Shown: piece after piece, positions 7,302 to 41,508 of the stretch | How the letters are laid out: each line of letters begins with the position of its first letter | How positions within the stretch are numbered: the first letter of the stretch is position 1 | NCBI GenBank assembly: GCA_050633245.1 | Contig: JBOEGD010000011.1 | Location: forward strand, 288,001 to 352,000 | Direction of reading: 5' to 3' | Length of the DNA stretch: 64,000 bases | Source: Calditrichia bacterium | GTDB lineage: Bacteria > Calditrichota > Calditrichia > RBG-13-44-9 > J075 | Translations under genes and position numbers: made by a program | Notes under the pieces: generated by a model | Databases searched by the model: none | The model's input: only the letters and a program-made list of their open reading frames with translations | What the model was told of the DNA's origin: nothing

Positions 7302-8243
7302 ATGGATCTTTTAACTCCACTTGCTGTTTTTGCCGTTAGCCTTGCGGTCTTAATTAAAGCGTCTGACTACTTTACCGCCGCGGCTGAAGAAATTGGAATA
7401 ATTTGTGGGATGTCCCCGTTTGCTGTTGGCGTTATTATTGTTTCAGTAGGAACATCGCTACCGGAGCTTATCTCTTCACTGGTCGCAGTTGCATCAAATT
7501 CCCCGGAGATTGTGGCCGGTAACGTTATTGGCTCCAATGTTGCCAATATCTTTCTCATCCTTGGTATAGGAGCGATAATTGGTAAAGAATTAACCATTAA
7601 ACATGATCTTATACGGGTAGACCTGCCGCTACTTCTCGCCTCGGCGTTTTTTCTGGCACTAACGTGCTGGGATGGAATGTTCTCTCGCGGCGAGGCCGTA
7701 ATGTTCCTGCTGGCACTCATTATCTTTCTGGCTTATCTGCTGAAAGACGGAAAGGGCGATATTCAGGGTGTTAATGAAAAGGCAGAGAAGGCAAGCTTTA
7801 CAATAAAGCCGTTTGCGATTATTGTTGTCAGCGCTCTTTTTGTTTTCCTTGGTGCCACTTATACCATTGAATCAGTGATAAAAATATCGGAACTGCTGAA
7901 TGTTGGAAAAGAAGTTGTTGCTGTCAGCGCTGTAGCTTTTGGTACTTCGCTGCCTGAGTTGATGGTAACGATTAGTGCGGTGAAAAAGAAGAATAGTGAA
8001 ATGATCGTAGGGAATGTGCTCGGTTCAAACATATTCAACACCTTTGCTGTTATGGGCTTTCCGGGATTATTCTCTGGGCTTGCTGTTCCAGATAATATGG
8101 TAAGCACCGGAATTACTACCATGCTGATTGCGTCTGTTCTGTTTTTTGGTGTAACCCAAGACAAGCACGTTACCCGTTGGGAAGGCTTTATGTTCGTTCT
8201 GATGTATTCTTATTTTATTGGAAAAATATTCAACCTGTTTTAG
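7302..8243 (+). CDS. Calcium/sodium antiporter (CaCA, YrbG-like)
   Basis: Two alpha repeats GTSLPEL...GNVIGSNVANI and GTSLPEL...GNVLGSNIFN. Confidence 0.93.
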   Translation: MDLLTPLAVFAVSLAVLIKASDYFTAAAEEIGIICGMSPFAVGVIIVSVGTSLPELISSLVAVASNSPEIVAGNVIGSNVANIFLILGIGAIIGKELTIKHDLIRVDLPLLLASAFFLALTCWDGMFSRGEAVMFLLALIIFLAYLLKDGKGDIQGVNEKAEKASFTIKPFAIIVVSALFVFLGATYTIESVIKISELLNVGKEVVAVSAVAFGTSLPELMVTISAVKKKNSEMIVGNVLGSNIFNTFAVMGFPGLFSGLAVPDNMVSTGITTMLIASVLFFGVTQDKHVTRWEGFMFVLMYSYFIGKIFNLF

Positions 8244-29368: not shown

Positions 29369-29410
29369 AATACTTTGGTAATAAGACGATATGTCATTCG
29401 AGGTTTATAC

Positions 29411-32400
29411 ATGAAACACCGTTCTATGTTTTACGCATTATGTTTTTTCCTTCTGAGTATTGCTCCGCTTTCTGCGCAACAATACAGCGAAAGTAACGAC
29501 TTTTCCTACGCGCTGAAGCTTTACAATGAAGGATTCTACGATATTGCTGCTCAACAGTTTTCAACGTTTATTAATCGCTATCCTGCCAGTGATAATATGG
29601 GCGACGCGCGTTACTACTACGCCGACTCTTATTATAAATTGGGCGAAATTGACAATGCGCGCATTGAGTTTCAGGGGCTTGCAGTGGGTTTCCCAGATCA
29701 TCCGCGTGCTGCTGAAGGTTGGTTGAGAGTAGGGGAGTGCTATGAAGAATTAGGCAAACCTATGGAGGCTGCAAAAGCCTTTGAAACGATCAAGATTTTA
29801 TATTCTTCAAGTCCATTGGCACCACGCGGCTTGCTTCATGCCGGTCGGTTGTACCTTGAAAGTGGCGAGCCATTACGTGCTGAACAAACGCTAAAGGAGT
29901 TTTTGGATCGGTATGTGGAATCCTCTGAATACCCTCAGGGCCGTGCTCAATTTGGCACAGTGCTTCTTGCAAAAGGAGAGCTTGAACACGCAATTAAGGA
30001 GTTCGAACGCGTACCGGCATTAACTCAGGACAAAGAAATTCTTTCGACTGCCCTCCTTGGCAAAGGACAAGCAATGTATCGACTTGGCCTAATCAGCCGG
30101 GCAACAGAATCATTTAATGGGATACTTTCAAATTACATCCGTAGCAGTTCAGCGGCTGAGGCATTGACACAGCTGGTGCGGATTCATCAGAATAAACGTG
30201 AGTATACCGAGGCACTGTCTCTTATACGTAAACACGCCTCCTCATTTTCCGGCGGCAAGCAGGCCACTGCAATAAGCATGCTCGAGTCGCAGTGCCTTAT
30301 TCTCCAAAAGAATCCCTCTCAAGCTGTCAGGATGCTTGAACCAATAGTCGGGTCAGCATCGCTAACGGTAAAAGAAAAGACACTCTCTACATATTATCTG
30401 GCATGTGCTTATTTGGAAGATGGAAGTTATGATAAGGCTCAGCCGCTCTATGAGGCTCTGCTCAATGACGCAGATGCTAAGACAAAAGAGCTTCGGGTAC
30501 CAATATTGATTAATTTGTCTTCGCTACATCTTGACAACAATCGGATTGCCTTAGCGCGTCCGCTGGTGCACCAACTTCAGGAAGAGCATCCGGGCTCACC
30601 AGACAATGAGAGCATTCACCGTGAATTGATCAAGAAGGCCTTTAAGCAACAGCAGATTTCTGTTGGCGTTGATGAACTGCAGCGCTATCGCGGTGCATAT
30701 CCGGCCTCTGCTTCGCGAGACGATCTGACTCATTTGGCCGGCAAGGCTTATTTCGAAAATGAACAATATCAGCGTAGCCTGTTGTTTTTTGAACAGGTGC
30801 TTGCCGAATATCCTGGCTCGGCGGTTTGGGATTCCAGCCGTGCGTATATTCGCTATATCAAAACCTACGAAGAAACTGGTGAGCAGGCTGGAGTTAAAGA
30901 GCTTGCTAAACTAATGGGAAGAATGATTACCGGGGAAAAGAAGGAGCAGCTCATCTTTGATCTGGGTGAGGTTTATATCAGCAGATTGAAAGACTTTGAA
31001 GCAGCGGCGAATATCTTTTCTCAACCGCAAACGGCTAAGGAAGATTCTGCCACAACGGCAAAGCGGCTATATTATCTTAGCGAAAGCAAGTTACTGCTTG
31101 CCGAGAAAGAACTCTTCCTAAGTTCACCCTCAGAAAAAAGTTATGCCGAGGCAGCTAGCGAACTTAAGAAAGCAATGGTCTACATAAATCAGTCTCCACA
31201 GCCGGATACGCTGATGTTTCGCTATCTAAAAACAACTTTGGCTGCGGATACGCCAATAGATAAATTTCTTCAGTTTTGGACGGTGTTTGAACAGAATTAT
31301 CCGCAGAGTAACTTACTCGCTGAGGCCTACTTGCATATCGCTCGAAAGGCGAACATTTCCGCTAAGGCGTCAATCGCAAATACCTATTTTGACAAGGCAA
31401 TTGCAAAAGGTGGATATTTTGGCGGTACAGCAGCTCTCTTTCGTGGAAAAGAACTACTCCAAAATGGCGATCGTGCCAATGGTGAATCTGTTTTAAAGAC
31501 TTTCTTGCTGGAAAATAAACGTCACCCGGGACACCCGGAAGCGTATTGGCTTCTTAGTCAGTCTAGTCTTACCGCAGGCGAGAAAAAGACCTCTGCAGCA
31601 TTTTTGGAGCGCCTTGCCGAAGAATTCAATTATACAGAGTATGGTGCTCAAGCGCCGGTTGGCGTTATTGCAAGCCACATTGCAGACGGCAATTATGAAA
31701 AAGCTGCACAGAAAATTCAGTATGAGCTACGAGGGGTATCGGTAGACGATCCTGTTGCTGCAAGCTACTTGTCCCAACCGGAACCAGCCTACTATTTTTA
31801 CGCCGGAAAATCTGCCTGGCGCCAAAAAAACTTTGGCCGTTCTCGCAGAGAATTGCTCGCCTATCTAAATCGAGCTCAAAAGCAGGAGTTTCAGAATGAA
31901 TCTCTTTATTTGCTTGGCATGATGGCGATTGAAGAGCAGGACATTGAGTCAGCTCTCCTTCACTTCGAACTTGTGAATAAAGATGGTGATGCGACATATT
32001 ACCAGCAGGCAACTCTTGAAGCCGCAAAGCTACTCTATGATAATAGACGTTTCGAAGAAAGCCTTGGTCGCTATCAGAGCCTGACTGCCTTTTCTCAACC
32101 AGCGCTGCGAATGGATGCTGAAGCGATGATGGTTCGCAACTTGATCCAACTGGGGCGAAGTAAGGAAGCATCTGCTGCAATTAAGAAATACAATTCCAGC
32201 TATAAAAAACAAGCGGGATTAAACAATTATCTCGCTTCGTTCGAATATGAAAAAGGACGAAAAGCCTTTACAGAAAAAAGTTATGATCGCGCCTTAAATA
32301 GTCAGAAAAATGTTTTGAAAAAGTATAAAAAGTCCGACTATGCCGATGACGCCAACTACTTTATTGCACGTATTCAAACCACTATGAATCGCACTAAAGA

Positions 32401-33061
32401 TGCTCTGAAGACCCTCGATCAATTCCAGAAAAACTATCCCAACAGTGAGCTGCAGGGTAACGCCTATCTAACCCGTGCAGAAATCCATTTCCGTGATGAG
32501 CAGGAAGATCTGGGATTAGCAGCTGTAAAAAAAGCTGTTGAACTGGCATCGACGCCGGCAGTAAAACGCAGCTCACTCTCTTTGCTTGTTAATACCTATC
32601 ACAATATGGGGTTGTGGGATGGAGCGCTACAGAAAACGCGGGAGTATATTGCCCTTTATCCCAAAGCGTCTGATATCATGAGTAAGAAAATTTCCATAGG
32701 GATTTTTCTCTCCCGTGCGAACCGATACAGTGAAGCACTGGATTATTTGCAGAAAATAAAATACGAGGTTGGCAGTCAGGAAGAGCCGGAAGTGCAATTT
32801 TATATTGGTGAAGCGCTATACAATGCAGGGCAGTATGATCGCGCAATAAATGAGTTTTTGAAAATCCCGCTGCTTTCGCAAAAGACCAAATTGCAGTGGG
32901 AAGCCAGTGCACTGTATTTTGCCGGGCAATCGTACGAGAAGTTGAATCGACCGCAGGATGCGATTCGGATGTATGAAGAAATTACATCGCGACCGGGGAT
33001 TCAGGTTGAACTTAAGCGCGAAGCACGGAACTTGATTAGCAAACTCAGAAAGTTAAACTGA
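29411..33061 (+). CDS. Large exported tetratricopeptide-repeat protein (CpoB/YfiO-type repeats)
   Basis: Signal peptide ending LSA-QQ; many 'F...YP.S....A.Y' TPR units; ATG at 29411. Confidence 0.85.
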   Translation: MKHRSMFYALCFFLLSIAPLSAQQYSESNDFSYALKLYNEGFYDIAAQQFSTFINRYPASDNMGDARYYYADSYYKLGEIDNARIEFQGLAVGFPDHPRAAEGWLRVGECYEELGKPMEAAKAFETIKILYSSSPLAPRGLLHAGRLYLESGEPLRAEQTLKEFLDRYVESSEYPQGRAQFGTVLLAKGELEHAIKEFERVPALTQDKEILSTALLGKGQAMYRLGLISRATESFNGILSNYIRSSSAAEALTQLVRIHQNKREYTEALSLIRKHASSFSGGKQATAISMLESQCLILQKNPSQAVRMLEPIVGSASLTVKEKTLSTYYLACAYLEDGSYDKAQPLYEALLNDADAKTKELRVPILINLSSLHLDNNRIALARPLVHQLQEEHPGSPDNESIHRELIKKAFKQQQISVGVDELQRYRGAYPASASRDDLTHLAGKAYFENEQYQRSLLFFEQVLAEYPGSAVWDSSRAYIRYIKTYEETGEQAGVKELAKLMGRMITGEKKEQLIFDLGEVYISRLKDFEAAANIFSQPQTAKEDSATTAKRLYYLSESKLLLAEKELFLSSPSEKSYAEAASELKKAMVYINQSPQPDTLMFRYLKTTLAADTPIDKFLQFWTVFEQNYPQSNLLAEAYLHIARKANISAKASIANTYFDKAIAKGGYFGGTAALFRGKELLQNGDRANGESVLKTFLLENKRHPGHPEAYWLLSQSSLTAGEKKTSAAFLERLAEEFNYTEYGAQAPVGVIASHIADGNYEKAAQKIQYELRGVSVDDPVAASYLSQPEPAYYFYAGKSAWRQKNFGRSRRELLAYLNRAQKQEFQNESLYLLGMMAIEEQDIESALLHFELVNKDGDATYYQQATLEAAKLLYDNRRFEESLGRYQSLTAFSQPALRMDAEAMMVRNLIQLGRSKEASAAIKKYNSSYKKQAGLNNYLASFEYEKGRKAFTEKSYDRALNSQKNVLKKYKKSDYADDANYFIARIQTTMNRTKDALKTLDQFQKNYPNSELQGNAYLTRAEIHFRDEQEDLGLAAVKKAVELASTPAVKRSSLSLLVNTYHNMGLWDGALQKTREYIALYPKASDIMSKKISIGIFLSRANRYSEALDYLQKIKYEVGSQEEPEVQFYIGEALYNAGQYDRAINEFLKIPLLSQKTKLQWEASALYFAGQSYEKLNRPQDAIRMYEEITSRPGIQVELKREARNLISKLRKLN

Positions 33062-33295: not shown

Positions 33296-34621
33296 ATGCG
33301 TTTCGTCTCGCTGAGAAATTTAAGCACCAAAATAGGTCTTCTTTTAATTTTAGCGCTTCTTCCTGCTCTTCTTTCGTCTTGTGGGGGCAGTAAAAAAGTG
33401 AGTCAGTCTGAGTACTCTTCCATGTCGCCAAGTGACAAGATTACTTACCTCACTGCGCAGGTTGAAAAAGATCCTGAGAACATCGTTCTTAAAAAGCAGC
33501 TGTATAAGGAATACCTGAATCTGGACATGGCACCACAGGCATTGAATGTTATGGAAGAGGTTCTGATTATCGACCCTACCCAGGTAGACATTCAGTTTGA
33601 GTATGGAGAGCTGCAGTATAAGCAGGGGAATACAACATCTGCGAATAGAGCATTTCTAAACGTGTTGAATTCAGTTAGCGGCGATTTTTATACCAGCCGT
33701 ATTGCAAATTATGTATCCGGCAACTTTTTGGTACAGGCAGTAACGGCTGGTGCACTGGATGAAGGTTTTCCTTCTTTCTCGCCTGACGGTAAAAAAATGG
33801 CCTTTCAGAAGTTCAATGGCAACGATTGGGACATCGTCGAGTTCGATCTGGAAACACGCCAGGAAATACCGCTGGCTGCGACCAGTGCAAATGAGGAAGC
33901 TCCCGTATATTCTCCGGATGGAAAACAGCTCGTATATACGAGTACTGCCAGTGATAGGCGTCCTATCGAAAACAAAGTTAAAGTTCGCGAAATCCGCGTA
34001 ATGGAGCGCAGCGATCGTTTTTCACAAAACCTTACTCAGTCAGTTGCGGATGATTGGTTACCTCGCTACAGCAATAATGCTGAAATGCTGTTGTTTGTCT
34101 CCGAACGATCCGATCTCCGACGCGTCTCTTATGTTGATAAGCAAAGCGATATCTTTATAATGGAGCGTGATGGAGATTTCCAGCATCGCCTTACCGATTC
34201 ACCTGCAAATGAAGGCGGAGCCAGCTTCTCTGCTGATGATAAGCGGATTTTCTTCCATTCGAACAAAAATGGCGTTTATGACCTTTTTAGCATGAAGACA
34301 TCTGGTAAGCAGGTTTTAACCATTGTCGATTCACCGGGCAATGATGTAAATCCTTCGGCTTCACCAAAGGGAGATCATGTTGTCTTTATGTCTGATCGTG
34401 ATGGTAATTTCGAGATTTACCGTGTGACCACAGAAGGATCACAGCCTGAGCGCTTAACCTACAATTCCGGTGTGGATGCAAATCCGGTTTTTTCTCCTGA
34501 TGGAAAGTCTGTTGCATTTCATTCCGATCGCAATGGCAATTTTGATATCTTTGTAATCAATCTCGATTATGAATCCGGAGCGATGACGAAGGCTGAACTT
34601 ATTCAAAAGCTGGGCGGTTAA
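33296..34621 (+). CDS. Lipoprotein with TPR plus TolB-like PD40 beta-propeller
   Basis: Lipobox LLSS-C; repeats PSFSPDGKK, PVYSPDGKQ, PSASPKGDH, PVFSPDGKS..F.SDRNGNFDI; GGAGG RBS. Confidence 0.88.
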   Translation: MRFVSLRNLSTKIGLLLILALLPALLSSCGGSKKVSQSEYSSMSPSDKITYLTAQVEKDPENIVLKKQLYKEYLNLDMAPQALNVMEEVLIIDPTQVDIQFEYGELQYKQGNTTSANRAFLNVLNSVSGDFYTSRIANYVSGNFLVQAVTAGALDEGFPSFSPDGKKMAFQKFNGNDWDIVEFDLETRQEIPLAATSANEEAPVYSPDGKQLVYTSTASDRRPIENKVKVREIRVMERSDRFSQNLTQSVADDWLPRYSNNAEMLLFVSERSDLRRVSYVDKQSDIFIMERDGDFQHRLTDSPANEGGASFSADDKRIFFHSNKNGVYDLFSMKTSGKQVLTIVDSPGNDVNPSASPKGDHVVFMSDRDGNFEIYRVTTEGSQPERLTYNSGVDANPVFSPDGKSVAFHSDRNGNFDIFVINLDYESGAMTKAELIQKLGG

Positions 34622-34654: not shown

Positions 34655-34691
34655 AGTGCCTGCTTCATCTGAAGCGGGCACTCGTGTTTTT
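34655..34691 (+). terminator. Stem-loop / probable terminator
   Basis: AGTGCCTGCTTC-ATCT-GAAGCGGGCACT followed by CGTGTTTTT. Confidence 0.6.
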
Positions 34692-34702
34692 GGGGAATTC
34701 CT

Positions 34703-34731
34703 TTGATTTTCCAGCCCACCTTCGCTATTAT
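34703..34731 (+). promoter_or_regulatory. Sigma70-type promoter for the nucleosidase-like / SPL-like operon
   Basis: TTGATT (34703-34708), 17-nt spacer, TATTAT (34726-34731). Confidence 0.55.
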
Positions 34732-34763
34732 AAGCTCTTGATATAACTAAGAAAATAAAGTTT

Positions 34764-35825
34764 ATGAGCGATCCAAAATCACCAGCCAGGCTATTGGTCT
34801 TTGCCCATCGAGGTGAAGCGCGCAGCTTTCTTGAAGCGAATAAATGGTCTGCAGCTGAAAGTGGAATTCCGGGACATTATGTTTTTGAAAACCAACAGCT
34901 TTTAATCACTGGTGAAGGGACTTATGAGGTCTTAAAAAAACTCTCCGCTGTTTGCTCATTCAAACTGCCGGAGATTGTAGTAAATCTCGGGACCTGTGGT
35001 GCATTACGTAATGAATTGAAGACTGGTGAGGTTGTTGCTGTTCGGACGGCATATGGCTCTGAAGGTCCGCAACCGCTATTTAAATCCTATACATCTTCAG
35101 ATTCCCAGGCTACAATTGATTGCATTTCGTGTAGCCGGCGAGTAGAGAGCCGCGAGCTTGCCGATCAGCTCGCGAACTTCGCCTCACTTGTCGACCGGGA
35201 AGCATGGGCTGTTGGCAGCGTAGCGGAAATGTTCAAGCTGTCGTTTTATTCTTATAAGCTCATCACGGACTTTGCTGATGGCGCCGTCCTGGTGTCCGAT
35301 ACTGCTGAGATCAGTGAGCAACTACTTGCGCACTATAGACATATGATAGCAAATAATCCGGCGCAGCCAATTGTTCAAGCCGCTCCAGTTGACACACCTT
35401 CGGAGTTTTATTTTACCACGTCGCAACGTCGTTTACTCAAATCTCTTTTACAGCAGCTGTCAATTAGAGAAAAAGTGAACCCCGACGATATTTTGATGGA
35501 AATGGGCGTTTCTCTTGAATTTGGCAAGAAGATGCGCCCGAAAGATAAGACTGCGATGTTACTTCAGGCATTGAGTGACCGCCTTTCGCCATTCAAGGCT
35601 GAATTGCGACGGGAATTAGACGAGCAAATCCGTGCTGTGAAAGAAGTGGGCTGGAACGTTAAGTTTGAGCCGCAGTTTGAAGATGAACGTATCGAAATTA
35701 AAGCCACTGTACGAAACGAATCTCAACTTGCTCGTCTCGCAAAGTCACTTCAACAGCTACCGTATAGGCAGATTGTCGCATTATTACGTGGGGAAACGCC
35801 TGGAGAAAAAAGAGATGCGCTTTGA
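34764..35825 (+). CDS. Nucleoside phosphorylase/MTA-SAH nucleosidase-fold protein with extra C-terminal domain
   Basis: LVFAHRGEA, LITGEG, VVNLGTCGAL, LVDREA, YKLITD match the PNP_UDP_1 motif order; about 150-aa C-terminal extension after a Pro/Ala linker. Confidence 0.7.
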   Translation: MSDPKSPARLLVFAHRGEARSFLEANKWSAAESGIPGHYVFENQQLLITGEGTYEVLKKLSAVCSFKLPEIVVNLGTCGALRNELKTGEVVAVRTAYGSEGPQPLFKSYTSSDSQATIDCISCSRRVESRELADQLANFASLVDREAWAVGSVAEMFKLSFYSYKLITDFADGAVLVSDTAEISEQLLAHYRHMIANNPAQPIVQAAPVDTPSEFYFTTSQRRLLKSLLQQLSIREKVNPDDILMEMGVSLEFGKKMRPKDKTAMLLQALSDRLSPFKAELRRELDEQIRAVKEVGWNVKFEPQFEDERIEIKATVRNESQLARLAKSLQQLPYRQIVALLRGETPGEKRDAL

Positions 35826-36834
35826 AACTATTTTTGTAGAAGAGCAAGTGCGCTACAATCCGTATTCGCAAAAAATTCTGCAGGCCTTTCCCAATGTGCC
35901 GGTGCGCTATATTCGTAAAGTGGAGGATGTCTTTGGTCGTGTTAAGAAACCCTATCTTCATAAACGCACCGGGCTAAACATCTTTGTTGGTAGAAAAGAA
36001 GGCCATCTGGTAAAAGAGGCGCCTGATGCATACGGTTTGGCAAACGAACCGCATTACTATTTTATTCATGCCTACAACTGCATTTACGAATGCGAATACT
36101 GTTATCTACAGGGGTATTTTAATTCCCCTGACCTGGTGTTCTTTGTAAATCATGATGAAATTGTTTCGGAAATGCATCAGACATGTGCTGAACATCCCGA
36201 AGCAAAACGAATTTGGTTTCACGCGGGCGAATTTAGTGATTCATTAGCATTGAGTCATGTAACTGCCGAGTGGGATGTATACTGGGAATTTTTGCGCAGT
36301 CAGCCTCGGGCTAAAATTGAGTTAAGAACAAAATCTGTAAATATTAAGGCGCTGCTCGATTTGCCAGCTTTAGACAATGTTACGATTTCATTCTCATTGT
36401 CTCCTGATGATGCGACACGAAAGTATGACCGTAAAACACCCTCTTTTTCGGCCCGGCTAAAAGCACTTCACCGCATTGCCAAGCATGGTTACCGGATAGG
36501 CATACATTTCGATCCCATCGTTGATTCACCGAATTTAGCGGCGGAATATCAAGACCTTCTGAGCAATCTGCTCATAACTGTAAAACCAGATCAAATCGAA
36601 TATATCTCGCTAGGTGTTGTTCGCTTCACTAAAGATGTTTATAGTCAGTTTAAGCGAAATTACCCAAACTCAGATATGCAGGCGGCGGAGTTTGTCAGCA
36701 GCTTCGACAACAAGGTGCGCTATAGCAGGCCTCATCGTTTGTCGCTGCTGAACAGAATAAAGCAAATGTGTATCGAGGCCGGTTTGCATGATGAACAAGT
36801 TTATCTTTGCATGGAGAATGAAACCCTTTCATGA
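35815..36834 (+). CDS. Spore photoproduct lyase (SplB)-like radical SAM protein
   Basis: CIYECEYCYLQ (CxxxCxxC plus YL, 36079-36102), GEFSDSL, ELRTKS, SFSLSP, HFDPI, YLCME; ATG at 35815 with GGAG upstream, overlapping the previous gene. Confidence 0.85.
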   Translation: MRFETIFVEEQVRYNPYSQKILQAFPNVPVRYIRKVEDVFGRVKKPYLHKRTGLNIFVGRKEGHLVKEAPDAYGLANEPHYYFIHAYNCIYECEYCYLQGYFNSPDLVFFVNHDEIVSEMHQTCAEHPEAKRIWFHAGEFSDSLALSHVTAEWDVYWEFLRSQPRAKIELRTKSVNIKALLDLPALDNVTISFSLSPDDATRKYDRKTPSFSARLKALHRIAKHGYRIGIHFDPIVDSPNLAAEYQDLLSNLLITVKPDQIEYISLGVVRFTKDVYSQFKRNYPNSDMQAAEFVSSFDNKVRYSRPHRLSLLNRIKQMCIEAGLHDEQVYLCMENETLS

Positions 36835-38435
36835 CTGCCAATCCGAAACATGCATTTGACTCTTCTATTAAGACTCGTCTTGCCACAAAAATTGTGGTTT
36901 TGTTGAGTGTTATTATTGGAATTGCAATTCTTACCGTTGGTGGTTGGCTCTACGAAAAAGATAAGCAACGGGTGCTCGAAAACCTTCAAATACAGCTTCA
37001 ACTGGCTGCAAATACAATTTCCCTTTCTATCGATGGAGATCGTTACTCTGAGCTTCGCGGCAAAGAATCGATCGGGTCTGAAGCGTTTGATGAGGTTATG
37101 TCTACCCTCGAACGTTTTATGGTCAACAGTTATCTTGGCTTCGAGCGTAATAATATTTACACCTTCCGTAGAATAAATAAAGACACCTTACAATTTACGG
37201 CAATGCTCCAGAAACAGTATGTTGGAAACTTATATGCCGTCCGTGATGAAATGCGTTTAACGCTCGATCAGGGAAAGCCTTCGTACACCGGGGTTTATGA
37301 GGATGAGAATGGGGCCTGGGTCTCTGCATATGCACCGATACTTAATAGCGCCGGGGTTGTTGTCGGACTGGTTGAAGTTGATTTTCAGAATAACGTTTAC
37401 CTGCTCAGCCTTGAAGAGGAACAGAAGGAAATCCTGATGTTTGTTGCCTGTGGTTTGCTTGCAGCACTGGTTTTGGCTCTGTTCTTTGGGCGCTATTTAT
37501 CTAAGCCGATAACGGCTGTTTCAAAAGGCGCACTCCAGATATCTCAAGGCAACTTCGATGTGCAGATACCTGTGCAAACTGCGGATGAAATCGGGCGATT
37601 GGCACGCGCCTTCAATTACATGGTGCAAGAGATTCAGGAAAAGGAATACATTCGCAAAAAAAACGATGAAATCTCCGCAGCGAATAAACAGCTGGATAAA
37701 TTGAATAAATCTCTTCATGAAGCCAATCGTTTGAAATCTGAGTTCCTCGCCATTGCTGTACACGATTTGAAAAACCCCCTTCAGGTTATACATGGCTACC
37801 TCGAAATCATTCAGGATAATACAGAGCCTGGCGAGCGCACCTGGCAATACTGTGAAAGTATCTCCGCGGCCACTCAACGCATGTTGAAGCTCATTAAACA
37901 GTTGCTGGATACCACTGCTATTGAAAGCGGCAAGCTACAGCTTAAGAAACAAAATGTTGAGCTGGCAAAATTAACAGAGAGTGTCGTAAAAGATCAGCGG
38001 GGCTTGGCTCAGAAAAAGGATCAAACAATACATTTTAATGCCTTGTCTGATTCTGTTGTTTATGCCGATGAATCGCGGATGCACGAAATACTGGAAAATT
38101 TAATTAGCAATGCCGTCAAGTTTTCTCCCCATGAACGAGACATATTCGTCTCAATATTTGAAAGCCCCAAGGCCAGCGATAAAGTTTGCATTAGTGTGAG
38201 AGATCAAGGCCCCGGATTGAACGCTAGCGATATGCAGAAGCTATTCGGACGCTTTATGCGCTTGTCTGCGCTGCCCACGGGTGGTGAAGTCTCAACCGGT
38301 TTGGGTCTTTCGGTGGTTCGCCAGCTGACAGAGCTTCATGGTGGTCGGGTATGGGCGGAAAGCGGGGGGAAGGACAAAGGCGCGACGTTTTATGTTGAGT
38401 TCCTAGCAAATTCAAAAGTGGCCGGATCAAATTAG
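36831..38435 (+). CDS. Membrane sensor histidine kinase (Cache-like periplasmic domain, HAMP, HisKA, HATPase)
   Basis: Two TMs, WVSAYAPI, HAMP DEIGRLARAFN, AVHDLKNPL, NLISNAVKF, DQGPG, GLGLS; ATGA overlap. Confidence 0.93.
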   Translation: MTANPKHAFDSSIKTRLATKIVVLLSVIIGIAILTVGGWLYEKDKQRVLENLQIQLQLAANTISLSIDGDRYSELRGKESIGSEAFDEVMSTLERFMVNSYLGFERNNIYTFRRINKDTLQFTAMLQKQYVGNLYAVRDEMRLTLDQGKPSYTGVYEDENGAWVSAYAPILNSAGVVVGLVEVDFQNNVYLLSLEEEQKEILMFVACGLLAALVLALFFGRYLSKPITAVSKGALQISQGNFDVQIPVQTADEIGRLARAFNYMVQEIQEKEYIRKKNDEISAANKQLDKLNKSLHEANRLKSEFLAIAVHDLKNPLQVIHGYLEIIQDNTEPGERTWQYCESISAATQRMLKLIKQLLDTTAIESGKLQLKKQNVELAKLTESVVKDQRGLAQKKDQTIHFNALSDSVVYADESRMHEILENLISNAVKFSPHERDIFVSIFESPKASDKVCISVRDQGPGLNASDMQKLFGRFMRLSALPTGGEVSTGLGLSVVRQLTELHGGRVWAESGGKDKGATFYVEFLANSKVAGSN

Positions 38436-38543: not shown

Positions 38544-39257
38544 ATGAATGAGATTGACGATGTATTGGCATCACGGTTTGACTCTCTGTATCACTGGTTG
38601 AACAGTAAGTATGGACTGAGTGAGATTGAATATGAAATGGATGGTCGGAAATTTCGCGTTTTCAAAGTGAAAGATATCGAACTTGCTTTGGAAGAGTCGC
38701 TCCGCGATCCAGGTAATCCAAATAATCGCAGTCCTTACTGGACTGAGTTTTGGCCATCTGCCAAGGCACTTTCTACAACCTTGTTGCGCGGCAATGTTTC
38801 GTTCACGAACAAACGAGCACTTGAGCTGGGCTGTGGGTTGGGATTTACCGGTGTTAGCCTTGGCCAGGAAGGCGGCATCGTTACTCTCTCAGACCGCGAG
38901 CCAGATGCACTGAAGTTGGCAGAATTGAACTGGATTGTCAATAATGGCGCAGTTCAACCATCAATTCGCCTGTTAGACTGGAATCACCTAATCGGTTGGC
39001 CGGCAAAAGCTGATGAGCAATATGACATAATTCTTGCTGCCGATGTAGCTTACGAGATCGAAATATTTCCGGCATTGGTCAATGCACTGGATGTTCTTTT
39101 AATAAAAGATGGAGAAATTTGGCTTAGCGAACCAAATCGGCCGATTGCAAATGGGTTCTTCCTACAGCTTGAAGCAAAGGGCTTTTTGATTCAAAAACAG
39201 GACGTGCTAAGCGAATTTCCAAAGGTCTCGGTTTATCGGATTGTCAAAAATCTTTAG
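38544..39257 (+). CDS. Class I SAM-dependent methyltransferase (Methyltransf_16 / protein N-lysine MTase-like)
   Basis: PYWTEFWPSAKAL, LELGCGLG, LSD, LDW, IILAADVAY. Confidence 0.85.
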   Translation: MNEIDDVLASRFDSLYHWLNSKYGLSEIEYEMDGRKFRVFKVKDIELALEESLRDPGNPNNRSPYWTEFWPSAKALSTTLLRGNVSFTNKRALELGCGLGFTGVSLGQEGGIVTLSDREPDALKLAELNWIVNNGAVQPSIRLLDWNHLIGWPAKADEQYDIILAADVAYEIEIFPALVNALDVLLIKDGEIWLSEPNRPIANGFFLQLEAKGFLIQKQDVLSEFPKVSVYRIVKNL

Positions 39258-40803: not shown

Positions 40804-41508
40804 ATGAATAAGAACAACAACGAATTTATTGCCAGGCTCGATGCAACCATTGCAACGTATAGCTTGCTGAAACATCCCTTTTATCAATTGTGGAATATGG
40901 GTGAGCTGGACAAGCCAACTCTTGTTGAATACGCCAAGCAATATTATGCCCACGTTGAAGCATTTCCGGTTTATTTAAGTGCCGTTCATTCTCGCTGTGA
41001 AGATACATCTGCACGTCAACTGATTCTTGAGAATTTGATTGAAGAGGAATTTGGAGAAGAAAACCACCCGGAGTTGTGGCTGCGTTTTGCAGAAGGTGTC
41101 GGTGGAACACGTGAAGCTGTAAAAAGTGCAACTGTGCTGCCCGAAACCATACAGTCCGTCAATACCCTGAAGCGTCTTACATGCAGCGACAACTTTGCAG
41201 AAGGTATTGCAGCGCTTTATGCGTACGAATCTCAGGTGCCGGAAGTTGCTCGCAAAAAGCGTGAAGGCCTGAAAGAATTTTATGGTATCGAAGACGATCG
41301 CACAGTTTCATACTTTAGTGTGCATGAGGAAGCAGATATTGAACATAGCGATGCAGAACGTGAAATTTTGTTGCGTTATGCTACCGATTCATCAACTGAA
41401 GAACGTCTCTTGAATGCAGCAGAGGAATCTGCTAAAGCCATGTGGATGTTGTTAGATGGGATTTATGATAATCATGTTTCAGAATCTGCCAAGGCTTGCC
41501 TGAACTAA
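40804..41508 (+). CDS. CADD/CT610 family heme-oxygenase-like dimetal oxidase (putative pABA synthase)
   Basis: LLKHPFY, YAKQYY, ENLIEEE...NHPELW, LYAYESQ, KREGL, YFSVHEEADIEH. Confidence 0.9.
   Translation: MNKNNNEFIARLDATIATYSLLKHPFYQLWNMGELDKPTLVEYAKQYYAHVEAFPVYLSAVHSRCEDTSARQLILENLIEEEFGEENHPELWLRFAEGVGGTREAVKSATVLPETIQSVNTLKRLTCSDNFAEGIAALYAYESQVPEVARKKREGLKEFYGIEDDRTVSYFSVHEEADIEHSDAEREILLRYATDSSTEERLLNAAEESAKAMWMLLDGIYDNHVSESAKACLN

Follow-up and report, generated by a model that had tools for sequence, protein, structure and literature searches.

What does an enzyme with the architecture of spore photoproduct lyase (SPL) do in a non-sporulating bacterium when the cysteine that donates hydrogen in SPL is missing and a nucleosidase-like gene overlaps its own? 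This question is raised by a locus in a stretch of 64,000 nucleotides (nt) of DNA, hereafter the window (positions 288,001 to 352,000 of contig JBOEGD010000011.1, assembly GCA_050633245.1), from G000, a Calditrichia genome that is 97% complete. Three plus-strand genes, each overlapping the next, fill positions 34764-38435 of the window, namely a gene here called nuc, a radical S-adenosylmethionine (SAM) gene and a sensor kinase gene. The best explanation of the findings set out below is that nuc and the radical SAM gene encode one enzyme system, for which we put forward, as a tentative first choice and by analogy with HpnH/HpnG and MqnE/MqnB, that the radical SAM enzyme attaches the 5'-deoxyadenosyl group of SAM to a substrate, nuc then removing the adenine. 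No description of the pair was found in the literature searched, subscription journals and supplements lying outside that search, and the preliminary description of the locus as a candidate undescribed system is to that extent upheld.

The radical SAM protein matches the SPL family PF20903 at 88.3 bits, above the gathering cut-off of 27 bits, and its predicted model (pLDDT 86.2) superposes on the crystal structure of SPL from G. thermodenitrificans over 317-318 of its 339 residues (model against crystal: Z 30.6, root-mean-square deviation (rmsd) 2.8; Foldseek TM 0.79), the next-best fold being the PFL activase at Z 15.9. At the level of individual families, it scores 108.6 bits against TIGR04070, the spore photoproduct (SP) lyase equivalog with a cut-off of 400 bits, and 66.8 bits against TIGR03886, the SPL family protein of non-sporeformers with a cut-off of 437.55 bits. 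The active-site residues were mapped by profile alignment to the crystal sequence of the G. thermodenitrificans enzyme and interpreted with PMC3467042. All 70 sequences share C89, C93, Y95, C96 and Y97 of the cluster motif CxxxCxYCYLQG, and both the cluster cysteines and the two flanking tyrosines of SPL are thus retained. The SAM ligands are likewise kept, with K173, S194 and R270 at the positions of K174, S195 and R273 of SPL. Further, E139 aligns with the donor Cys140, and the stretch preceding the cluster motif (residues 1-88) contains no cysteine, as anticipated in the preliminary description, which had noted a SplB-like enzyme lacking its hydrogen donor. Where SPL contacts SP through R193 and E268, the window enzyme has S192 and G267, respectively, and the third side chain that binds the dihydrothymine, Y339 of SPL, falls beyond the profile alignment and is hence unmapped. 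Additionally, H231 and D233 are invariant in the family, where SPL has valine and alanine, and the only other invariant cysteine is C332 in a C-terminal YLCME motif, again conserved in all 70 sequences. On account of the absence of a donor cysteine at either known position, the replacement of R193 and E268 and the score of 108.6 bits, the enzyme, as judged from its sequence and predicted structure, is an SPL in architecture but not an SP lyase, in line with the earlier suspicion that it would part from the characterised SP lyases. Since the relay that lets SPL regenerate SAM is also absent, SAM is probably consumed rather than regenerated.

The comparison with SplB itself (EC 4.1.99.14; TIGR04070; G. 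thermodenitrificans structures 4FHC-4FHG) can hence be drawn with some precision. The whole fold is shared, including the N-terminal domain and the hairpin, as are the CxxxCxYCY motif with both flanking tyrosines and the Lys/Ser/Arg set of SAM ligands. The window enzyme differs in its Glu at the donor Cys, its Ser for R193, its Gly for E268 and its invariant H231/D233, and, unlike SplB, it has an obligatory nucleosidase partner. Its hosts are non-sporulating Calditrichia and Bacteriovoracia, and also Lachnospiraceae.

Only residues 68-107 of nuc are recognised by PF01048 (32.3 bits, cut-off 25.1). Its predicted model (pLDDT 91.3), however, adopts the fold of methylthioadenosine/S-adenosylhomocysteine nucleosidase (MTAN) over residues 6-198 (Z 23.4, rmsd 2.3, 193 residues aligned with 6aym_A), and this domain is followed by a second one at about residues 205-353, in agreement with the original account of a protein of the purine nucleoside phosphorylase (PNP)/MTAN fold with an extra domain of about 150 amino acids (aa). 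Inspection of the alignment shows no variation at E18, E146, K165 or D169 among 70-71 homologs. Profile alignment with solved MTANs places E146 and D169 in their 'ME' and 'SD' motifs, and E18 and K165 we take, by motif position only, to be the equivalents of MTAN Glu12 and Arg193, the catalytic set of the E. coli enzyme being Glu12/Glu174/Asp197. The fold (Z 22-23) and the catalytic Glu/Glu/Asp with a basic residue are hence shared with MTAN (Pfs/MtnN; TIGR01704). Compared with MTAN, the catalytic domain of nuc lacks about 35 residues in the stretch from MTAN residue 90 to 156, an arginine replaces the methionine of the 'ME' motif, and there is the extra domain of 150 aa. TIGR01704 (cut-off 73.8 bits) does not appear among the NCBIfam hits of nuc at E <= 0.01, and the members of its family score best, though far under the cut-offs, against the short nucleosidase PRK05634, HpnG and futalosine hydrolase; for nuc itself the HpnG profile gives 21.1 bits against a cut-off of 187. 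A profile search of the PDB ranks classical MTANs first, with H. pylori aminofutalosine nucleosidases among the best sequence matches. Taken together, sequence and model predict that the N-terminal domain of nuc is an adenine-releasing nucleosidase.

Analysis of gene neighbourhoods supports the conclusion that nuc is a dedicated and strictly conserved partner of the radical SAM enzyme. It lies directly upstream of the radical SAM ortholog in 8/8 loci of relatives. Among 80 loci taken from genomes of Calditrichia and Bacteriovoracia, 76 have the same arrangement; the remaining four have less than 300 nt of upstream DNA, and the arrangement hence holds in 76/76 testable loci. The inferred starts of the radical SAM gene overlap the stop codon of nuc by 4-14 nt in 60 of 70 loci. 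Presence and absence follow the same pattern. In a sample of 101 Bdellovibrionota genomes, 20 have the radical SAM ortholog (E <= 1e-150), and each of these has full-length nuc (E <= 1e-88) next to it; a full-length nuc is found in none of the other 81. Across 41 Calditrichia relatives, full-length nuc is found in exactly the nine genomes with a radical SAM ortholog. Likewise, when 80 metagenome loci are collapsed into 18 groups at 85% identity, a nuc-like open reading frame (ORF) precedes the enzyme in 17, the eighteenth being without upstream DNA. For the SPL paralogs of sister orders (28-31% identical), a search with tblastn and hidden Markov models (HMMs) of both nuc domains found a nuc neighbour in 0/9 loci. 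Further, because 80 of the 101 Bdellovibrionota genomes have neither an MTAN above the TIGR01704 cut-off nor nuc, nuc tracks this radical SAM enzyme rather than radical SAM enzymes generally. The conserved neighbourhood on which the preliminary description had staked its proposal is thus borne out by all testable loci.

The two proteins are also found as one polypeptide. P0121 (642 aa) surfaced among the longer relatives as a fusion of nuc to the radical SAM enzyme; among its 120 relatives listed, 116 are 631-692 aa long with at least 98% coverage, and all five named ones are from Lachnospiraceae. In profile-profile comparisons with hhalign, residues 1-285 of the fusion correspond to nuc residues 8-277 (probability 99.2, E 2.3e-19), and its residues 302-633 to radical SAM residues 2-337 (E 7.8e-60). 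The fusion retains the nucleosidase motifs without the second half of the C-terminal domain of nuc. The metagenome set of 80 loci contains only one fused ORF.

The C-terminal domain of nuc, which is helical with a hairpin in the model, is matched by no family in a Pfam search. A model of this domain (residues 205-353) in complex with the radical SAM protein gives ipSAE values of 0.77, 0.77 and 0.78, with 0.00 for three controls; the runs have at least 86% of their contacts in common, and the pLDDT of the partner is 81. Of 157 solved complexes 116 attain the mark used for ipSAE, as do 2 of 215 mismatched pairs, a calibration that is rough since own alignments were used. On the radical SAM side the modelled interface takes in residues 237, 285-297 and 303-313 of the hairpin/alpha-6 region, and on the nuc side residues 231-235, 274-281, 304-306 and 340-344, among which are the most conserved residues of the domain (the invariant P276 and the near-invariant E306 and G343). 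Hence, going by the model, nuc probably binds the radical SAM enzyme through its C-terminal domain. Additionally, in a paralogous SPL-like subfamily of Bdellovibrionota, the upstream gene ends in the same domain in 5/7 loci (HMM E 6e-9 to 8e-7), overlapping the SPL-like gene by 4 nt in L194, L195, L198 and L200 and by 11 nt in L196, and in L194 and L195 it begins with a ParB_N domain (42 bits). Because the same domain is joined to ParB-like heads beside this paralogous subfamily, it is predicted to be an adaptor. The two arrangements share the C-terminal domain and the directly upstream, overlapping gene, and differ in the ParB/Srx-like head and in the radical SAM enzyme, which is about 30% identical; the ParB-headed system is itself uncharacterised. 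Database searches with the C-terminal domain profile recover 838 cluster representatives (50% identity) at E <= 1e-3, and a nucleosidase domain is also present in 146 of the best 150 of these 838; its Atlas matches are unnamed clusters, together with a weak likeness to the helix-turn-helix (HTH) and C-terminal domains of ParB (TM 0.33-0.46).

Proteins of about 330 aa with a ParB_N domain and a nuc-C-like domain also occur in sister families within Calditrichia (L100:4619-5695(-), L101:4729-5688(+) and L102:4349-5338(+)), where they adjoin genes for an AI-2E transporter and an asparaginase and are not beside the SPL paralog of their genomes. In P0122 (653 aa) a ParB_N domain (67.7 bits) is joined to an SPL-like radical SAM domain in a single protein. 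A homology of the nuc C-terminal domain with the N-terminal extension of the group-3 SPL-like proteins described further below was considered and set aside, hhalign picking out the region at a non-significant E of 0.2.

What reaction might such a pair carry out? According to our proposal, the radical SAM enzyme would cleave SAM reductively, and the 5'-deoxyadenosyl radical would add to an unsaturated carbon of an acceptor, with SAM being consumed and not regenerated. The docked nucleosidase would then hydrolyse the N-glycosidic bond of the adenosylated product and free adenine, such that a C5-linked ribosyl group remains, and in some lineages an adjacent carbonyl reductase, either a short-chain dehydrogenase/reductase (SDR) or an aldo/keto reductase (AKR), might reduce this ribosyl group to a polyol. 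The adenosyl transfer, the order of the steps and the role of the reductase are what we infer from several considerations. Adenosyl transfer is at work in HpnH/HpnG and MqnE/MqnB, the two characterised cases known to us in which a radical SAM enzyme has a dedicated PNP-fold nucleosidase. Further, adenosyl transfer is preferred because the nuc partner is never lost, because fusion is typical of enzymes catalysing consecutive steps, because the reductases suit the reduction of a freed ribosyl aldehyde, and because the best, if weak, NCBIfam hits are HpnG, futalosine hydrolase and the short nucleosidase. Among the neighbours that could serve in this way, the gene immediately after that of the enzyme encodes an SDR in 10 of 18 Firmicutes-type metagenome groups, and an AKR gene lies divergently upstream of the pair in 54 Bacteriovoracia loci, with a gene for a family 2 glycosyltransferase (GT2) beyond it in 36; the latter arrangement may be order-level synteny.

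The likeness to the two precedents is one of logic rather than of membership. In hopanoid biosynthesis HpnH/HpnG, followed by the GT2 enzyme HpnI, combine a radical SAM enzyme, a short PNP-fold nucleosidase and a reduced polyol, as in the scheme proposed here, and a GT2 gene lies near the Bacteriovoracia pair; HpnG is among the best NCBIfam hits of the nuc family, albeit at 21-36 bits against a cut-off of 187. The window enzyme, however, lies outside the HpnH family, the best HpnH match of G000 being elsewhere (39 bits against 225), and a hopene cyclase was not found in G000. With HpnG and HpnH under their cut-offs and no cyclase match, a place in the hopanoid pathway is rejected. We know of no adaptor domain or complex for HpnH/HpnG. 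MqnE and MqnB/MTAN similarly couple radical SAM adenosylation to a PNP/MTAN-fold nucleosidase, and the fused and Firmicutes-type nucleosidases find their best NCBIfam hit in futalosine hydrolase (25-35 bits, cut-off 125). The structure of MqnE is a generic radical SAM match to the window enzyme (Z 13.4), a search of G000 returned no match to MqnE, and its best fut_nucase match (25 bits against 124.7) is at another locus; a place in the futalosine pathway is rejected on these grounds.

Several points weigh against adenosyl transfer. Sequence features cannot tell it from hydrogen abstraction, the NCBIfam hits favouring HpnG/MqnB rather than MTAN score weakly (21-36 bits, with cut-offs of 125-187), and it is the classical MTANs that lead the PDB profile search with nuc. 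In Calditrichia a reductase is near the pair only in L012, and conserved adjacency inside one order may be plain synteny. A stand-alone version of the N-terminal nucleosidase persists at the syntenic locus of sister Calditrichia genera without the radical SAM gene, which fits a general role, unless it is paired with the group-3 SPL-like protein of those genomes. Since canonical MTAN was not found in G000 (no TIGR01704 match at E <= 0.001) and TIGR01704 is above its cut-off in just 1 of 41 Calditrichia relatives, nuc could also be the MTAN substitute of this lineage. Lastly, the only SPL-fold enzymes characterised, SPL and phage M6 gp53, act on DNA by hydrogen abstraction (PMC3467042, PMC8989533).

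The alternative that best survives these considerations, which we regard as rather unlikely but to be taken seriously, is that nuc serves to remove a by-product. Here the radical SAM enzyme would abstract hydrogen and release one 5'-deoxyadenosine per turnover, the docked nuc would hydrolyse this inhibitor, and the neighbouring reductases would dispose of 5-deoxyribose. MTAN relieves the inhibition of radical SAM enzymes by 5'-deoxyadenosine, and its catalytic residues are conserved in nuc; the loss of the donor cysteine and the binding model that passes are equally favourable. So is the scarcity of canonical MTAN noted above, which extends to the 20 pair-bearing Bdellovibrionota genomes, only one of which has TIGR01704 above the cut-off. 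Further, the stand-alone nucleosidase is kept in the genera that lost the radical SAM gene, and the nuc profile matches some nucleosidase-like gene in 40/41 Calditrichia genomes; G000 has three other PF01048 genes, by eye two PNPs and an AMP-nucleosidase-like protein. A scavenger should nonetheless be dispensable, yet nuc is always present (76/76, 20/20 and 17/17 testable metagenome groups), and we know of no 5'-deoxyadenosine nucleosidase dedicated to one radical SAM enzyme. Moreover, the adaptor of the paralogous subfamily bears a ParB-like head, which is unable to clear 5'-deoxyadenosine, and there are the 80 Bdellovibrionota genomes with neither MTAN above cut-off nor nuc.

The preliminary description had favoured radical chemistry on a different DNA lesion or nucleoside, with a dedicated nucleosidase; the dedicated partner has stood, and the DNA lesion has not fared as well. 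That the enzyme is such a radical lyase or isomerase, with a DNA lesion or modified base distinct from SP as its substrate and nuc as a helper, strikes us as improbable. It would be compatible with the full-length SPL architecture (Z 30.6) and with R270, retained where SPL has R273, a ligand of both SAM and the lesion phosphate. DNA is the substrate of both characterised SPL-fold enzymes (PMC3467042, PMC8989533), and a ParB_N domain is both fused to an SPL-like enzyme in P0122 and present in the partners of the paralogous subfamily; the weak likeness of the C-terminal domain to the HTH and C-terminal domains of ParB points in the same direction. Phage M6 gp53, a radical SAM enzyme that isomerises glycinyl-thymidine in DNA, is reported to have a predicted fold like that of SPL and is not a repair lyase (PMC8989533); it works with a pyridoxal phosphate (PLP) enzyme instead of a nucleosidase. 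Against these points, the contacts to the SP bases (R193, E268) are lost, the isoelectric point (pI) of the radical SAM family has a median of 7.0 (range 5.8-9.2), and the hairpin/alpha-6 region, the proposed DNA contact in SPL, is predicted by the complex model to be covered by nuc. Further, the reductase and glycosyltransferase neighbours are ill-suited to repair, and no repair genes are conserved near the pair. The ParB/Srx fold also includes small-molecule kinases.

Reversing the order of the two enzymes leads to another possibility, which we hold to be distinctly improbable. In such a salvage scheme nuc would first free a ribosyl compound from methylthioadenosine (MTA), S-adenosylhomocysteine (SAH), 5'-deoxyadenosine or another purine nucleoside, and the radical enzyme would be a lyase acting on the freed sugar or base, with the reductase finishing the sequence, rather like queuosine hydrolase together with QueL, a radical queuine lyase. 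The gene order nuc, radical SAM, SDR and the persistence of the stand-alone nucleosidase without the radical SAM enzyme would be in keeping with this scheme. The MTAN-type aspartate, which protonates N7, would however not suit 7-deazapurines. A nucleoside hydrolase paired with a radical lyase does exist in queuosine salvage (PMC11130926, PMC11570991), but QueK belongs to a different hydrolase family, IPR023186 (PMC11130926). Additionally, no paper naming both 'queuine' and 'photoproduct lyase' was found in the literature searched, and an Rfam gathering scan of the window returned zero matches, neither a riboswitch nor another RNA family.

We give little credence to a combination of these ideas, in which the enzyme would add the 5'-deoxyadenosyl group of SAM to a DNA base, nuc would trim the adenine, and the reductases and glycosyltransferases would finish a sugar or polyol hypermodification of DNA, the ParB-like partners of the sister subfamily serving the same chemistry on DNA. 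That there is no functional link at all, a housekeeping nucleosidase merely happening to adjoin an SPL paralog, is hardly credible: nucleosidase-like genes are indeed near-universal in Calditrichia (40/41 genomes), yet the adjacency recurs in three phyla, the two are fused into one polypeptide, co-occurrence stands at 20/20 against 0/81, and the binding model passes.

If the adenosyl-transfer reading is right, the adenosyl group of SAM would here provide carbon as a building block for a third, independent time, hopanoid and futalosine biosynthesis being the other two, and through a fold that has so far been seen only in the repair and modification of DNA. The family is large: the adaptor domain by itself comprises 838 clusters at 50% identity. 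Its hosts range over bacteria from marine and sediment settings, predators and Lachnospiraceae of the gut; it is annotated solely as 'spore photoproduct lyase' or 'hypothetical'. The radical SAM enzyme further appears to bear a docking site for exchangeable partners, with a nucleosidase head or a ParB-like head depending on the subfamily, and the natural fusions offer a ready single polypeptide for biochemistry.

The third gene of the locus stands apart from the pair. The kinase directly follows the pair in just 4 of 80 loci, all of them in Calditrichia, and in the sister-genus loci L103, L104 and L107 its ortholog (51-53% identity) adjoins a stand-alone nucleosidase of about 200 aa. These three loci are without the C-terminal domain of nuc and without the radical SAM gene. 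Because the kinase ortholog keeps its place beside the stand-alone nucleosidase even in loci without the radical SAM gene, its link to the pair is lineage synteny and incidental, as the preliminary description had allowed, and the kinase was rejected as a part of the system. The joint absence of the C-terminal domain and the radical SAM gene was not counted as independent evidence for their association, since the two are contiguous DNA and one deletion explains both. L103 and L104 also retain the TolB-like and Methyltransf_16 genes that flank the three genes in the window. A third, group-3 family of SPL-like proteins is complementary to the radical SAM ortholog in Calditrichia (nine genomes against nine) and is accompanied by a stand-alone nucleosidase; its members have an N-terminal extension of about 150 aa, the motifs CxxxCSYC and GTGQxSDSL, and a YLCME ending. 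This family may be an isofunctional replacement for the ortholog in the window.

The coordinates of these features are collected in the table. The overlaps between the three genes (11 nt, and ATGA) agree with those first reported, and the quoted motifs LVDREAW, CIYECEYCYLQG and WFHAGEFSD are all found in the translations. A promoter had likewise been reported ahead of nuc; a consensus site is present there, but the region has six such sites against 6.7 +/- 2.3 in shuffled sequence, no excess, and the site is therefore to be read merely as a well-placed consensus match. Upstream of it, a terminator-like hairpin 3' of the TolB-like gene, as identified by pattern in the sequence, would mark the upstream limit of the transcription unit.

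Table. Positions of the genes, domains and signals of the locus (window coordinates), with the loci that carry the group-3 SPL-like family.
Feature	Position or loci	Strand	Details
terminator-like hairpin	34655-34682	+	12-bp stem, 7 GC pairs, then T-run; pattern match
promoter-like site TTGATT-17-TATTAT	34703-34731	+	9/12 consensus matches; 33 nt before nuc ATG
nuc	34764-35825	+	353 aa; MTAN-fold domain and C-terminal domain
nuc N-terminal domain, residues 1-204	34764-35375	+	short MTAN/PNP-fold nucleosidase, predicted adenine release
nuc C-terminal domain, residues 205-353	35376-35825	+	helices and hairpin; predicted adaptor docking on radical SAM enzyme
radical SAM gene	35815-36834	+	339 aa from ATG at 35815; 11-nt overlap with nuc
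sensor kinase HAMP-HisKA-HATPase	36831-38435	+	534 aa; ATGA overlap with radical SAM gene; Pfam domains
SPL-like family of about 430 aa (group 3)	L097-L099, L108-L113		relatives G001, G002, G009, G010, G013, G014, G037, G039, G040

Among the remaining neighbours of the pair in other genomes, the reductase in L012 was rejected as a shared feature, that AKR being merely 30% identical to the one in Bacteriovoracia. In 41 Bacteriovoracia loci (e.g., L030:7803-8285) the pair is followed, at a distance of about 1.8 kb, by a small 2-oxoglutarate (2OG)-Fe(II) oxygenase gene, which, together with the GT2 gene, may represent either synteny or further pathway steps. In L091 a nucleoside 2-deoxyribosyltransferase-like gene (7327-7938) overlaps the end of the SPL paralog, and a copy with 60% identity is present in G000 on another contig; as a conserved partner the gene was set aside, since it is found in 1/9 paralog loci only.

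Within the window, nuc is preceded by a gene for a 1228-aa TPR protein with a BamD/YfiO-like N-terminus (29375-33061) and by one for a TolB-like PD40 beta-propeller (33296-34621), whose N-terminus by eye resembles a lipoprotein signal and which is syntenic among relatives. Downstream of the kinase lies a Methyltransf_16 (lysine methyltransferase-like) gene (38544-39257), which is kept in relatives, with 45-47% identity in L103 and L104. Further along, at 40804-41508, a gene for a TenA/PqqC-like 'iron-containing redox enzyme' (PF14518) adjoins genes for an HD_4 domain protein and an alpha/beta hydrolase.

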